Assembly (NCBI GenBank): GCA_022798335.1
Contig: JAAWMH010000015.1
Location: 7,872-71,871, forward strand
Length of the DNA stretch: 64,000 nt
Reading direction: 5' to 3'
DNA from: Clostridia bacterium
GTDB taxonomy: Bacteria > Bacillota > Clostridia > TANB77 > CAG-508
Part shown: positions 6,248 to 62,207 of the stretch, one piece after another
Layout: the number at the start of each line of letters is the position of its first letter
Numbering within the stretch: position 1 is the first letter of the stretch
The notes under the pieces: generated by a model
What the model was told of the DNA's origin: nothing
Seen by the model: only the letters and a program-made list of their open reading frames with translations
Database searches by the model: none
Translations under genes and position numbers: made by a program

Positions 6248-7862
<1,615 letters not shown>

Positions 7863-31890: not shown

Positions 31891-31904
31891 ATACTACCTC
31901 CAGC

Positions 31905-31980
31905 GTCAGTTTCAAGGACATACGTTTAACCAACATTTTTATTCTAAAAATGTCAGTTAAACATACGTCCCTAAACTGAC
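31905..31980. repeat. intergenic repeat element: two inverted copies of the GTCAGTTTAGGGACGTA-type unit (26-nt arms, 25-nt spacer) between pth and rng
   Basis: GTCAGTTTCAAGGACATACGTTTAAC ... GTTAAACATACGTCCCTAAACTGAC; same unit family as 40817-40868 and 60802-60854. Confidence 0.5.
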
Positions 31981-31982
31981 TC

Positions 31983-38935: not shown

Positions 38936-40792
38936 CTATCTAATAGCATGAAATGAGCAACTACTTATACAGGTACCACATTTAATACATTTTTCTTCGT
39001 CTATATGGTGTACCTCTCCTGGCTTTCCTGAAATAGCCTCTACTGGACAATTTCTTTTGCACATACCACAACCTTTGCATTTATTTTCATCAATTTGTAT
39101 TTTAGCTAACTTTTTGCATTCTCCTGTTTTACATTCTTTATATTTGATATGTTCTAAATATTCTTCCCTAAAATATTTTAAGGTAGAAAGTACTGGGTTT
39201 GGTGCTGATTGCCCTAAACCGCATATGGCAGTTTTGGGAATTCCTATTGCTAATTCTTCTAGTTTTTCTAGGTCTTCTATGGTTCCTTCTCCTTGGGTAA
39301 TCTTTTCTAATAATTCTAGCATTCTTTTGGTTCCAATTCTACATGGTGTACATTTTCCGCAAGATTCATCTACTGTAAAACTTAAATAGAATTTTGCTAG
39401 GTTTACCATACATTTTGTATCATCCATAACAATTAGTCCACCAGATCCCATCATAGAACCTATTTGTTTTAAAGATTCATAATCAATTGGGGTATCTAGG
39501 TGTTCTTTTGGTATGCAACCTCCTGATGGTCCTCCTGTTTGCGCTGCTTTAAATTCTCTATTATTTGGAATTCCGCCTCCTATATCATAAACAATTTCTC
39601 TTAAGGTCGTTCCCATTGGTACTTCTACTAAGCCTACATTTACTACATTTCCACCTAATGCAAATACTTTAGTTCCTTTTGAATTTTGTGTTCCTATTTT
39701 TGCATACCAATCCGCTCCATTTAAAATAATTTTAGTAATATTGCTATATGTTTCTACATTGTTAATTAAAGTTGGTTTTCCCCATAAGCCTGAATTTGCA
39801 GGATATGGTGGTTTTACTCTTGGTTGTCCTCGTTTTCCTTCGATAGACTCTAAAAGTGCTGTTTCTTCCCCACAAACAAATGCCCCTGCTCCTAAACGAA
39901 TATCTATATCAAATTCAAAGTTTGTACCTAATATATTTTTTCCAAGTAGCCCATACTTTCTTGCTTGTTTAATTGCTGTTTCAAACCTTTCTACTGCAAT
40001 TGGATATTCTGCTCTAACATAAATATATCCTTGGTTTGCACCAATTGCATATCCTGCAATCATCATTGCTTCTATTATGCAGTGTGGGTCTCCTTCTAAA
40101 ATACTTCTATCCATAAATGCTCCTGGGTCTCCCTCATCTGCATTACATACTACATATTTTTGTTTTCCTTCTACTTCATTTGTTAATCTCCACTTTTTAC
40201 CTGTAGAAAAACCTGCTCCTCCTCTTCCTCTTAAGCCTGATTTTTCTACTTCTTCTATTACTTCATTTGGTGTCATTTCTAATAGTACCTTTTCTAATGC
40301 TCTATATCCATCAAAAGCAATATATTCTTCTATGTTTTCTGGATCTATTTTTCCACAATTTTGAAGAGCAATTCTTTTTTGTTTTTTATAAAAAGTAAGG
40401 TCATCTAATTTTTGTACTACTTTTCCGTCTATATCTTTACAAAGTAATCTATCTACTGTTTTTCCTTCTATTATGTGAGATTCTATAATTTCTTCGCAAT
40501 CTTCTGGTGTAACTCCCGCATAAAAGGTATCTTCTGGGCGAATAATCACAATTGGTCCTTTTGCACAAAGTCCAAAACAGCCTGTTTGAATCACACGTAC
40601 ATTGGCTAACTTTTTTTCTTCTACTACTTTTTTAAAGTTTGCTATTATTTTAGGAGATTTTGAAGAAGTACAACCTGTTCCATGGCATACTAAAATATGC
40701 TTTTCTTTTGTACCTACATTGCAATTTACACGAAGCTCTAATTCTTTTTTCTTTTCTTCTCTTATTTTTCTTATTTTTTCTAATGCTTCCAA
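38936..40792 (-). CDS. hydB: NuoF-like flavoprotein subunit of bifurcating [FeFe]-hydrogenase (HydB: Trx-like 2Fe-2S, FMN/NAD site, 4Fe-4S)
   Basis: GRGGAGFSTGKKW FMN motif, multiple CxxCxxC clusters; TTG start with AAAGGAG RBS. Confidence 0.85.
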   Translation of the reverse strand: MEALEKIRKIREEKKKELELRVNCNVGTKEKHILVCHGTGCTSSKSPKIIANFKKVVEEKKLANVRVIQTGCFGLCAKGPIVIIRPEDTFYAGVTPEDCEEIIESHIIEGKTVDRLLCKDIDGKVVQKLDDLTFYKKQKRIALQNCGKIDPENIEEYIAFDGYRALEKVLLEMTPNEVIEEVEKSGLRGRGGAGFSTGKKWRLTNEVEGKQKYVVCNADEGDPGAFMDRSILEGDPHCIIEAMMIAGYAIGANQGYIYVRAEYPIAVERFETAIKQARKYGLLGKNILGTNFEFDIDIRLGAGAFVCGEETALLESIEGKRGQPRVKPPYPANSGLWGKPTLINNVETYSNITKIILNGADWYAKIGTQNSKGTKVFALGGNVVNVGLVEVPMGTTLREIVYDIGGGIPNNREFKAAQTGGPSGGCIPKEHLDTPIDYESLKQIGSMMGSGGLIVMDDTKCMVNLAKFYLSFTVDESCGKCTPCRIGTKRMLELLEKITQGEGTIEDLEKLEELAIGIPKTAICGLGQSAPNPVLSTLKYFREEYLEHIKYKECKTGECKKLAKIQIDENKCKGCGMCKRNCPVEAISGKPGEVHHIDEEKCIKCGTCISSCSFHAIR

Positions 40793-40816
40793 TTCTTTAG
40801 CTCCTTTCTTTTTATC

Positions 40817-40868
40817 TATGTCCCCAAACTGACAGTTTTGGTCATTTAAGCTACGTCCCTAAACTGAC
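40817..40868. repeat. intergenic repeat element (tandem units TATGTCCCCAAACTGAC ... TACGTCCCTAAACTGAC with internal AAACTG-A-CAGTTT palindrome) between hydC and hydB
   Basis: about 85% identical to the element at 60802-60854. Confidence 0.5.
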
Positions 40869-41359
40869 ATTAAGTTGTTTAATACTTCGTCTAGCATTTT
40901 TACTGTTGCTTTTCCATATACTTCTCCATTTACAGTAAATACGGGTGCTATTCCGCATGCTCCTACACAGCGTGTAGCGTCAATGGAAAATTTACCATCT
41001 TTGGTTGTTTCTCCTTCTTCTATTTGTAATCTTTGTTTTAGGCGTTCCATAATTTTTTCTGAACCTTTTACAAAGCATGCTGTTCCTAAACATACCGAAA
41101 TAGCATACTTTCCTTTTGGTTTTAATGTAAATCTTGAATAAAAGGTAATTACTCCATAAATTTCTGCCATAGGTATTTTTAAATATTCTGATATTTTTCT
41201 TTGTGCTATTTGTGGAATATAACCATATTTTACTTGTACTTCATTTAAAATAGGAATTAAGTTGTCTTTACTATTAGTATAGGGCTCTAAAATGCTCTCT
41301 AATTCTTTATTTAGCTTATCGCTCATACATGGGCAGTTTTGATTTTCTTCTTCGCTCAT
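40859..41359 (-). CDS. hydC: NuoE-like 2Fe-2S subunit of [FeFe]-hydrogenase (HydC)
   Basis: 166 aa, CxxxxC...CxxxC thioredoxin-like ferredoxin (CLGTACFVKG...CVGACGIAPV). Confidence 0.85.
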   Translation of the reverse strand: MSEEENQNCPCMSDKLNKELESILEPYTNSKDNLIPILNEVQVKYGYIPQIAQRKISEYLKIPMAEIYGVITFYSRFTLKPKGKYAISVCLGTACFVKGSEKIMERLKQRLQIEEGETTKDGKFSIDATRCVGACGIAPVFTVNGEVYGKATVKMLDEVLNNLMSV

Positions 41360-46789: not shown

Positions 46790-46803
46790 TTACTTTTCTC
46801 CTT

Positions 46804-60229: not shown

Positions 60230-60505
60230 AAATAATTGTATAACGTGCTACAATTAGTGTTATATTGATACAAGCATTTAATAAAGAAATAGTAATAAGT
60301 TTTTATTTTATGTAGAGAGGCTATGGTTGGTGAAAATAGCTTAAAATAATTTATGAATCCACTCTTTATTTGCTTTTTACGATGAGTAAAACCGTTTAAT
60401 GCTCGGTTACAAGCATTGTTAAGATATTTATGATACTCATAAATAATTAAGGTGGTACCGTGAGAATATATACCTCGCCCTTATTTTTGGGCGAGGTTTT
60501 TGTTT
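60230..60505 (+). promoter_or_regulatory. T-box riboswitch leader (probable Ser specifier UCC) with intrinsic terminator, upstream of DUF1653-serS
   Basis: T-box sequence AATTAAGGTGGTACCGTGAG at 60445-60464; terminator CCTCGCCC-N8-GGGCGAGG+T5 at 60472-60500; GAA-UCC-A specifier-like context at 60354-60362. Confidence 0.6.
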
Positions 60506-60794: not shown

Positions 60795-60801
60795 TAAAAA
60801 G

Positions 60802-60854
60802 TATGTCCCCAAAGTGACACTTTTGTCACTTTTAAGAACGTCCCTAAAATGACA
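60802..60854. repeat. intergenic repeat element (TATGTCCCCAAAGTGACA-CTTT-TGTCACTTT...ACGTCCCTAAAATGAC) immediately upstream of serS RBS
   Basis: about 85% identical to 40817-40868; contains perfect 9-bp hairpin AAAGTGACA/TGTCACTTT. Confidence 0.5.
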
Positions 60855-60868
60855 AAGGAGGTAAAAAA

Positions 60869-62165
60869 ATGATTGATATTAAATTTCTAAGAGAAAAACC
60901 AGAACTTGTAAAAGAAAATATGAAAAAGAAATTTCAAGATCACAAACTAGTTTTAGTTGATGAGGTTTTAGACCTAGATAGCAAAAACCGTGAAATAAAA
61001 TTAAAAGGTGATGACCTAAGAAGTAAAAGAAATTCTTTAAGCCAAGAAATTGGTAATTTAATGAAACAAGGCAAAAAAGAAGAAGCAGAAGATATCAAAA
61101 AGCAAGTACAAGCTATTAACCAAGAACTATTAGAAAATGAAAAATTAGAAGAAGAATATAGCACTCAAATTACACAAAGAATGATGAAAATACCAAATAT
61201 CATCCATGATTCTGTTCCAATTCGGTAAAGATGATAGTCAAAATGTAGAAATTCAAAAATATGGAGATCCTATTACTCCCCCTTATGAAATTCCTTACCA
61301 TACTGATATTATGGAAGCATTAGATGGTATTGACTTAGATGGTGCAAGACGTGTTGCTGGAAATGGCTTTTATTATTTAATAGGTGATATTGCAAGGCTT
61401 CATTCTAGTGTTATTTCTTATGCTAGAGACTTTATGATTTCTAAAGGATTTACTTATTGTGTACCACCATTTATGATACGTAGTAATGTAGTAACTGGTG
61501 TTATGAGCTTTGAAGAAATGGACGCTATGATGTATAAAATTGAAGGAGAAGATTTATATTTAATTGGTACTAGTGAACATTCTATGATTGGTAAATTCAA
61601 AGATCAACTTTTAGCCAAAGATAAATTGCCATATAACATGACTTCTTATTCTCCATGCTTTAGAAAAGAAAAAGGTGCTCATGGTATTGAAGAACGCGGT
61701 GTTTACCGTATTCATCAATTTGAAAAACAAGAAATGATTGTTGTTTGCGAACCTGAAGATAGCTATAACTGGTACGATAAGTTATGGTCTTATACTGTTG
61801 AATTATTTAGAAGTTTGGATATTCCTGTTCGTACTTTAGAATGTTGTAGTGGAGATTTAGCTGATTTAAAAGCTAAAAGCTGCGATGTAGAAGCGTGGAG
61901 CCCTAGACAACAAAAATATTTTGAAGTTGGTAGTTGTTCTAATCTAACAGATGCTCAAGCAAGACGCCTTGGTATTCGTATTAAAAGTGAAAAAGGAAAT
62001 TATTATGCACATACTTTAAATAATACTGTAGTCGCTCCTCCTCGTATGTTAATTGCTTTTTTAGAAAATCATTATCAAGAAGATGGAAGTATTACTATTC
62101 CAGAAGTATTATGGCCATATATGGGTGGCACTAAAATTTTAAAACCTAAAAAAATAATAAAATAA
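60869..62165 (+). CDS. serS: serine--tRNA ligase, frame broken by a single-C insertion
   Basis: N-terminal coiled coil + class II core; ORFs 60869-61228 + 61206-62165; removing C at 61223 (attCggtaaa) restores ...HDSVPIGKDDSQNVE... Confidence 0.88.
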
Positions 62166-62207
62166 TGACCTGTCCCTAATCACCCTAAAAATGATCTGAC
62201 CCCAATC
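62166..62207. repeat. degenerate copy of the GTCCCTAA / CCCTAAAAATGA / TGACCCCAA motif family immediately upstream of engB RBS
   Basis: CCTGTCCCTAATCACCCTAAAAATGATCTGACCCCAATC; shares GTCCCTAA and CCCTAAAATGA cores with the other copies. Confidence 0.4.

Follow-up and report, generated by a model that had tools for sequence, protein, structure and literature searches.

A REP/REPIN-Like Family of Palindromic Repeats Associated with a RAYT/TIRYT-Type Transposase in Gut Clostridia

The intergenic repeats found in a 64-kb stretch of clostridial DNA (the whole of which we call the window) are, in our judgment, non-autonomous REP/REPIN-like palindromic mobile elements, the TIR repeats of a TIRtron associated with a RAYT/TIRYT transposase; we put the probability of this interpretation at roughly 0.85. 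An earlier sequence-only reading had listed a REP/MITE-like repeat among several options, and that option was the right one. The elements form a multicopy family with palindromic architecture, lie outside genes, break assemblies, are polymorphic at orthologous sites, and flank a RAYT-type transposase gene in relatives. We infer both their mobilization by this transposase and any effect at the RNA level. A Y1/HUH enzyme would recognize the hairpin and head on single-stranded DNA and would copy the elements in trans into intergenic spacers, where they would survive because genes are left undisrupted.

Results

Repeat units in the window

Matches to the family core, YGTCCCYAAASTGAC, number five in the window against 0.63 expected. 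The degenerate 14-mer GTCCCYAAAMTGAC, with up to two mismatches allowed, gave the same count and expectation, and 0 of 100 shuffles reached five. These matches lie at positions 31967, 40820, 40855, 60805, and 60840, each on the + strand. We then applied a profile (nhmmer) and a position matrix (PWM), both trained solely on copies from other genomes. The profile matched 60799-60855 (locus C; E = 2.7e-13), 40818-40870 (locus B; E = 1.5e-11), and 31946-31980 (right arm of locus A; E = 2e-5), and the position matrix recovered loci C and B and the right arm of locus A with scores of 22.9 to 29.7 bits. Apart from these five units and the left arm of locus A, which is divergent, neither the ungapped PWM nor nhmmer detected further copies in the window, which corresponds to a density of about one locus per 15 to 20 kb.

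Five loci had been proposed from the sequence. The copies at 31905-31980, 40817-40868, and 60802-60854 are solid, whereas those at 2173-2201 and 62166-62207 are possible relics only. The flanking genes named at the time were borne out by Pfam (AlaRS, RNase E/G, NuoF-like, SerRS, and EngB-like GTPase), and the small palindromes AAACTG-A-CAGTTT and AAAGTGACA/TGTCACTTT were both found. The statement that GTCCC occurs only at these loci is false: the window holds 17 GTCCC against 21 expected, and bare GTCCC, being without enrichment, was rejected as a family marker. Identity between the doublets, estimated earlier at about 85%, measured 79% over 53 nt. The orientation of the elements does flip relative to genes, but in window coordinates the strong units all lie on the + strand. 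Hairpin formation, attributed to the whole family, holds for locus A and is modest at locus C (z = -2.1 and -3.1), whereas locus B folds no better than shuffles (z = -0.7 and 0.06).

The two possible relics scored below threshold. The sequence at 2173-2201 (no strand assigned) is, as described, a perfect 14+1+14 palindrome, GAGACATTGGGGAC-T-GTCCCCAATGTCTC (dG -23.9, z = -5.5), located between a radical-SAM gene and the alaS promoter. It is only a putative member of the family, a best sub-threshold match with a profile E value of 0.25 and a PWM score below 8 bits. It has the head GTCCCCAA(T) in common with the family; its stem is different. No exact copies were found in the loci fetched up to then or in viral contigs, and a similar head, GTCCCCAATG, flanks the RAYT gene in L090. 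This palindrome is possibly a minimal head-to-head relative of the family. The stretch at 62166-62207 (+ strand), between serS and engB, had been called a degenerate copy; with a profile E value of 2.1 and a PWM score below 8 bits, the match is not significant, and no structure was detected there (z = +1.2). It is a possible decayed copy. Two other features were observed next to the 2173-2201 palindrome. A strong promoter-like TTGATT-N17-TATAAT lies directly downstream (- strand), and the alaS ORF (345-2175) is only 598 aa long, with its stop at 345, the usual C-terminal part being missing or out of frame.

Strong copies within operons

Locus A is a palindromic element of 75 to 80 nt (REPIN-like, "type 3"; 31903-31982, no strand assigned). 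Its arms, at 31906-31940 and 31946-31980, carry heads (GGAC/GTCCC) that face each other. The earlier description of 31905-31980 as an inverted pair was correct: the - (sense) strand folds into 36 bp, including 6 G-U pairs, with a dG of -46.6 kcal/mol (z = -11.9), compared with -29.8 for the + strand. Arms the same as those of locus A occur in L005, L036, L053, and L065 (short-loop variant). The element is flanked by the pth stop (31983) and the rng Shine-Dalgarno (SD) sequence and start (31890), within the pth-rng transcription unit. The sole promoter-like site for that unit lies upstream of pth (32592-32564, a perfect TTGACA-N17-TATAAT). No terminator-like site was called at locus A or C, and no T run follows the hairpins of the window copies, as an intrinsic terminator would require.

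The two arms of locus A differ at six positions, all of which are G-U compatible on the mRNA strand (P ~0.03). Most of these differences are common to the orthologues, which keep 5 to 6 G-U pairs, all on the sense strand. This asymmetry hints at RNA-level selection or at selection on one DNA strand. Since ten full-length copies from other genomes have no consistent preferred folding strand, the asymmetry of locus A is not a property of the family.

Two metagenome contigs with identical Pth both terminate inside locus A, as expected of a multicopy repeat. In one of them, L001, which comes from another sample, the place of the window's glycosyltransferase gene directly upstream of pth is taken by an rve-type (IS3-like) transposase gene (118-1062); this difference is a strain-level IS polymorphism. 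The pth gene itself is intact (185 to 186 aa) in the window, L081, L085, and L086. In L082 (350-908), L083 (350-908), and L084 (430-988), it is called as a pair of overlapping ORFs, one of 111 or 114 aa and the other of 80 aa, and the recurrence of this split site across samples is odd.

Locus B is a single arm, that is, a direct doublet (40812-40870, + strand; PWM scores, 29.4 and 29.3 bits), with units at 40820-40833 and 40855-40868. At its TGAC terminus, the element overlaps the stop codon of the NuoE-like gene (40859-41359, - strand) and encodes the final codons of that gene (MSV and stop); at its inner end, 27 nt separate it from where the NuoF-like gene (38936-40792, - strand) starts. 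The element is antisense to its operon, in which the gene for the NuoE-like 2Fe-2S protein is followed by that for the NuoF-like subunit.

Locus C is also a single arm (direct doublet; 60797-60857, + strand; PWM scores, 29.7 and 25.5 bits), with units at 60805-60818 and 60840-60853 and an inner hairpin, AAAGTGACA-CTTT-TGTCACTTT, at 60811-60832. It is in sense orientation, and its TGACA terminus abuts the serS SD sequence (AAAGGAGG; ATG at 60869). The element lies between the DUF1653 gene and serS, which is followed by the gene for the EngB-like GTPase. Because a T-box leader (60268-60485, + strand; Rfam RF00230, 102 bits, E = 2e-21) precedes the DUF1653 gene and controls DUF1653-[locus C]-serS, locus C was found to reside inside an already regulated operon. 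The T-box terminator is at 60472-60497, and the placement of leader and terminator (60268-60497) ahead of the DUF1653 gene indicates that this small protein is co-controlled with SerRS. A promoter-like TTGTCA-N16-TAAAAT (10 of 12 matches) is present within locus C at 60823-60850; we rejected the idea of a promoter here, as such a match is no commoner than expected in AT-rich DNA. In the downstream gene, serS is read as two overlapping ORFs (60869-61228 and 61206-62165, overlapping at 61206-61228). Its frame is broken by an extra C near 61223 (attCggtaaagat), without which the product would read ...PIGKDDSQNVE. A frameshift, a pseudogene, or an assembly error could account for the split.

All three strong copies are intercistronic within operons and therefore should be transcribed, and for the same reason side effects on mRNA are possible. 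If the elements do alter the processing, stability, or translation of mRNA, they would do so incidentally, with no shared regulatory program.

The family in other genomes

We scanned 185,579 genomes for two units spaced 10 to 40 nt apart. This search returned 72 two-unit loci, compared with roughly 0.5 by chance (our own estimate), in about 15 metagenome-assembled genomes (MAGs) of uncultured gut Clostridia, together with six loci in Collinsella/Coriobacteriaceae MAGs. The GTDB species representatives do not include the genome of the window, and the fetched loci nearest to the window have 75 to 80% nucleotide identity to it.

These copies revealed a modular anatomy. In the basic unit, a short stem (most often GTGACA...TGTCAC) comes after the conserved head YGTCCCYAAA. 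An arm of about 50 nt contains two such units, and a pair of inverted arms gives the hairpin of about 120 nt. As a consensus, the arm reads aaGrgt-GTCCCYAAASTGACA-loop-TGTCAC-AAAAAGGAAC-GTCCCYAAASTGAC-aaa. Position -1 of the unit is C in 61% and T in 39% of cases, such that the unit opens with CGTC or TGTC, and the loop is 4 nt. The YGTCCCYAAA head contains no GTAG, the tetranucleotide conserved at the foot of classical REP hairpins. Composite copies form near-perfect hairpins of 100 to 120 nt (dG -58 to -95). Set beside these full-length palindromes, locus A is a palindromic variant with a short loop, and loci B and C each consist of a single arm. Pairing in the inner 6-bp stem reaches 92% across 22 type-1 copies, two of its pairs show compensatory changes, and subfamilies vary the two sides of the stem jointly (GTGACC/GGTCAC, GTGACG/CGTCAC, GGACA/TGTCC, and GCGACA/TGTCGC).

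Hairpins, a position in 5' leaders, and C/A-rich sequence upstream of the SD are also what would be expected if the elements were structured cis-regulatory RNAs (riboswitch-like leaders) or a common sRNA target site. We regard this as scarcely credible. An Rfam scan at gathering and permissive thresholds recovered only the T-box upstream of DUF1653-serS and nothing at the repeats, even at E values up to 10, and a tRNA scan found no tRNAs. Moreover, locus B lies antisense in its operon, no significant fold was obtained for locus B or C, and the covariation is just that of a simple palindrome.

Units of the family avoid coding sequence. Coding sequence makes up 81% of the DNA, yet 170 of 183 units are outside ORFs (P ~1e-104), and the other 13 touch ORF ends. 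The proposed tie to translation and RNA-metabolism genes was a coincidence of three loci: when flanking genes were tabulated at the 72 loci, the neighbors proved functionally unrelated (GH15, radA, and many others).

Two further observations concern variant copies. In L003 (6741-6845), at least four units form a tandem array with a period of 24 to 35 nt and no unique spacers, which shows that the unit is able to amplify head to tail. The copies in Collinsella/Coriobacteriaceae MAGs (L004, L012, L027, L037, L060, and L066) have the 14-nt core GTCCCCAAASTGAC with GC-rich flanks; they are partly tandem arrays and long palindromes (dG down to -80). No transposase was detected near them within the 8-kb pieces. 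These copies possibly represent cross-phylum transfer of the enzyme-repeat pair.

Polymorphism at orthologous sites

Comparison with relatives gave a mixed picture, in which the element is present at some orthologous sites and absent or in the other orientation at others. Locus A occupies the pth-rng spacer in the window and in the orthologous L081, L082, and L083 and is missing in L084, L085, and L086. RNase G of relatives with locus A is 93% and 84% identical; that of relatives with short spacers lacking the element is 82%, 80%, and 78% identical. Where present, the element is placed precisely, after the stop codon and ahead of the native SD. Conversely, the junction at 46790-46803 of the window is empty, whereas the orthologous junction in L043 and L072 holds about 115 to 150 nt of units. 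The nuoE/nuoF spacer in L026, L057, and L059 contains a different subfamily in the opposite orientation relative to locus B. In comparisons of filled versus empty orthologous sites, no target-site duplication was found, as expected of Y1 transposition. In addition, contigs L001, L002, and L091 end inside the repeat.

A Y1/HUH transposase gene flanked by the repeats

In 8 of the 72 loci selected by repeat, inverted arms about 1 kb apart enclose the gene for a Y1_Tnp protein of 260 to 275 aa. In every related genome that was examined, the gene is single copy and sits between GH15 and radA; in eight of nine loci, it has an arm of about 50 nt on each side, the two being inverted. We also selected homologues by protein alone. 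Each of the three (P0010, P0069, and P0085) is flanked by inverted arms upstream of radA; GH15 lies on the other side for P0010 and P0069, and synteny was identical in 25 of 25 contigs read for P0010. Despite this fixed synteny, the proteins are only 45 to 55% identical. Many homologues are on contigs of about 1 kb that end in arms.

Multiple lines of evidence identify the enzyme. Pfam PF01797 (Y1_Tnp) matched above its cutoff (E = 1e-11 to 1e-15). The best NCBIfam model was the REP-associated tyrosine transposase, at 60 bits (below the 80-bit cutoff), compared with 17 to 21 bits for IS200. Residues H62 and H64 (NH[VI]H) and Y121 (RYIHxNP) are invariant in an alignment of seven sequences; across 42 homologues, Y121 remains invariant and both histidines are at least 90% conserved. 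Searches of the PDB by sequence and profile gave no significant match to the transposase, and a fold search was needed. With an AF2 model (pLDDT 85), the best PDB match was 4ER8, a structure of the E. coli RAYT in complex with a REP hairpin (E = 3e-7, TM 0.70), followed by IS608 and ISDra2 TnpA. The model has a helical C-terminal domain (residues 199 to 264), and the protein has weak matches to HTH_23, HTH_28, and HTH_29 (Pfam E = 0.001 to 0.005; precomputed matches, PF13384 and PF13551). Single-copy status, fixed synteny, and a dispersed flanking repeat are hallmarks of a RAYT rather than of an insertion sequence (PMC5581495).

The arms flanking the gene carry a GGGGWSAS-type motif (GGGGACAC or GGGGACAG) in six of nine loci and the one-off AGGGACAC or AGGGACAG in others. 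In the window, loci B and C have GGGGACAT in their inner units, a match to GGGGWSAS at 7 of 8 positions. Every transposase locus also has a conserved palindrome, TATAGCATA and TATGCTATA separated by about 10 to 13 nt, between the upstream arm and the gene start (L013 at ~6500-6535, L020, L024, L070, L040, L075, L088, and L090); this palindrome could be an operator or a promoter element of that gene. By tblastn, the transposase, radA, and GH15 are absent from the window, and the presumed link between its repeats and the enzyme is drawn through relatives with 75 to 80% nucleotide identity.

The terminal inverted repeats and the ~120-nt length would equally suit a MITE derived from a conventional DDE-type insertion sequence and mobilized by that IS rather than by a Y1 enzyme, and an rve-type IS does lie beside pth in L001. 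However, filled and empty sites differ without target-site duplication, no matching IS ends were seen, and it is the single-copy, fixed-synteny Y1 gene, not a DDE gene, that lies between the arms in 12 loci of 10 genomes. We therefore consider a DDE-derived MITE very unlikely.

The same comparisons bear on the proposal that translation-related genes and the hydrogenase are co-regulated through the 14-mer, which would act as the operator of a transcription factor or be bound by an RNA-binding protein. The conserved core, the direct repeats 35 bp apart, and the position beside start sites are compatible with such a role. Nevertheless, the elements occur in both orientations beside the functionally unrelated genes of the 72 loci, come and go at orthologous sites, build 120-nt palindromes and tandem arrays, and flank a transposase gene, and serS is already under T-box control. 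An operator thus has a very low probability. Accordingly, neither the shared operator nor the structured 5'-UTR element offered by the sequence-only reading was upheld, given the unrelated neighbors, the two orientations, and the lack of an Rfam family match.

Placement beside Shine-Dalgarno sequences

The placement of elements beside SD sequences, first noted in the window, is real and recurrent. Among the 72 doublets, 29 in sense orientation have an SD and start codon within 20 nt of the TGAC terminus, compared with 3 in antisense. Because many of these are orthologous, they amount to about 18 versus 2 independent cases. This orientation bias is not predicted by a purely neutral model. The outer terminus generally abuts a gene boundary, either a same-strand start or an opposite-strand stop. 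The bias on the SD side could come from target preference, from the mode of arm loss, or from exaptation.

Exaptation would mean that the repeats are mobile but that single arms have been recruited to modulate translation or mRNA stability or to act as weak portable promoters, with locus A serving as an RNA processing or stability signal between pth and rng. The 29-to-3 ratio speaks for it, as do the retention of several SD-adjacent copies at orthologous loci of different species-level MAGs, the persistence of locus A at 84 to 93% RNase G identity with 5 to 6 sense-strand G-U pairs, the TTGTCA-N16-TAAAAT in locus C, and the location of all three window copies within operons. Several considerations speak against it. 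Only about 18 of the SD-adjacent cases are independent, the rest being orthologous. Since the outer terminus is always gene proximal, target preference or survival of one arm after deletion may also produce the bias. Promoter-like matches show no enrichment in this AT-rich DNA (16 versus 10.7 expected), and a transcript from the predicted site would begin in or at the SD. Genes are normal in relatives that lack the element at these sites. The G-U asymmetry (P ~0.03) may come from a strand bias in mutation or from selection acting on the DNA strand that is transposed. We thus judge exaptation of the single arms unlikely, though with a larger share of probability than an operator, a regulatory RNA, or a DDE-derived MITE. 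Adjacency to SD sequences looks like a property of where the elements land or survive, not of a regulon.

Discussion

The interpretation that we favor, a REP/REPIN-like family that forms the TIR repeats of a TIRtron, has close but imperfect counterparts among described systems. Di Nocera et al. (2013) reported RAYT-like TIRYT genes flanked by long inverted repeats with GGGGWSAS, which sometimes form moderately abundant dispersed families (PMC3733652). Quentin et al. (2018) placed TIRYTs in TnpA_REP subclass 2.1, whose members are long, have a C-terminal HTH, and had no REP-like neighbors found (PMC6006769), and the corresponding RAYT group 1 occurs in Clostridia according to Bertels et al. (2017) (PMC5581495). 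The system described here resembles TIRtrons in its long RAYT-like Y1 transposase with a putative C-terminal HTH-like domain, in its long inverted repeats instead of GTAG REPs, in its GGGGWSAS-type motif (GGGGACAC or GGGGACAG), and in its extragenic dispersed repeats, often in dimers or clusters. Based on the gene-flanking GGGGWSAS-type motif (six of nine loci), the weak HTH matches, and the helical C-terminal domain, the family fits the TIRtron class. In contrast to published TIR families, which are mostly from Proteobacteria and Acidobacteria, it belongs to uncultured low-GC gut Clostridia, is built from a defined module of a head with a 6-bp stem, and forms palindromes of about 120 nt that are REPIN-like. 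It also differs from the subclass 2.1 enzymes of the 2018 survey, which were without REP-like neighbors, in its clear link to a repeat; its own assignment to that subclass is a putative one, made by features.

Classical REP/REPIN-RAYT systems of E. coli and Pseudomonas (PDB 4ER8) share the extragenic palindromes, the inverted doublets, a single-copy, vertically inherited, flanked RAYT, and the HUH and Tyr motifs, and they provide the best structural match. However, their tag is GTAG, whereas here the head is YGTCCCYAAA, stems are 6 bp, and single arms of two direct units are common. Copy number here is apparently lower, and the transposase has an extra C-terminal domain of about 100 aa. The CGTC-tagged REPs of Di Nocera et al. 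(2013) are similar in their CGTC/TGTC start and 4-nt loop, but they have an 8- to 9-bp stem right after the tag, a loop of 4 to 5 nt, a CCA tail, and no associated transposase; our family has a 6-bp stem beginning 10 nt after the tag, no CCA tail, and an associated transposase. Given these differences in stem length and position, we do not assign it to the CGTC-REP class. Finally, Firmicutes MITEs (RUP, BOX, Bcr1, and EFAR) are likewise small, non-coding intergenic repeats that are often transcribed and fold into hairpins, but they are DDE-IS linked or enzyme-less and usually have target duplications, none of which were seen here.

Several points count against the favored interpretation: the window itself has no transposase gene, the 60-bit NCBIfam RAYT score is below the curated 80, the canonical REP tag GTAG is absent, transposition itself is presumed from sequence comparison, and both the orientation bias of single arms beside SD sequences and the G-U asymmetry of locus A sit poorly with purely neutral repeats. 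A more far-reaching proposal is that a subclass-2.1-type enzyme drives a REPIN-like family across a clade of gut Clostridia, with arms perhaps domesticated beside the RBS or stop, where they would tune operon expression. The G-U-preserving 36-bp RNA hairpin between pth and rng may be an example of such domestication. We hold this proposal only as a long shot.

Within the searchable literature library, a full-text search found no papers containing the core sequences, and a keyword search for RAYT or REPIN in Firmicutes since 2017 returned nothing relevant. The analysis removes a false lead, in that no hidden regulon joins alaS, rng, serS, engB, and the hydrogenase. It is of interest mainly to specialists in bacterial repeats and HUH transposases, for whom a REPIN-like family with its cognate RAYT/TIRYT in low-GC Firmicutes provides a sequence-defined example where such systems have barely been described, and the enzyme subclass with a C-terminal HTH would thereby be tied to a dispersed repeat family. 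For the organisms themselves, the repeat explains metagenome contig breaks and can serve as a clade marker. Since the elements lie inside operons, flush with stops and RBSs, they are convenient natural tests of inserted hairpins in polycistronic mRNAs.
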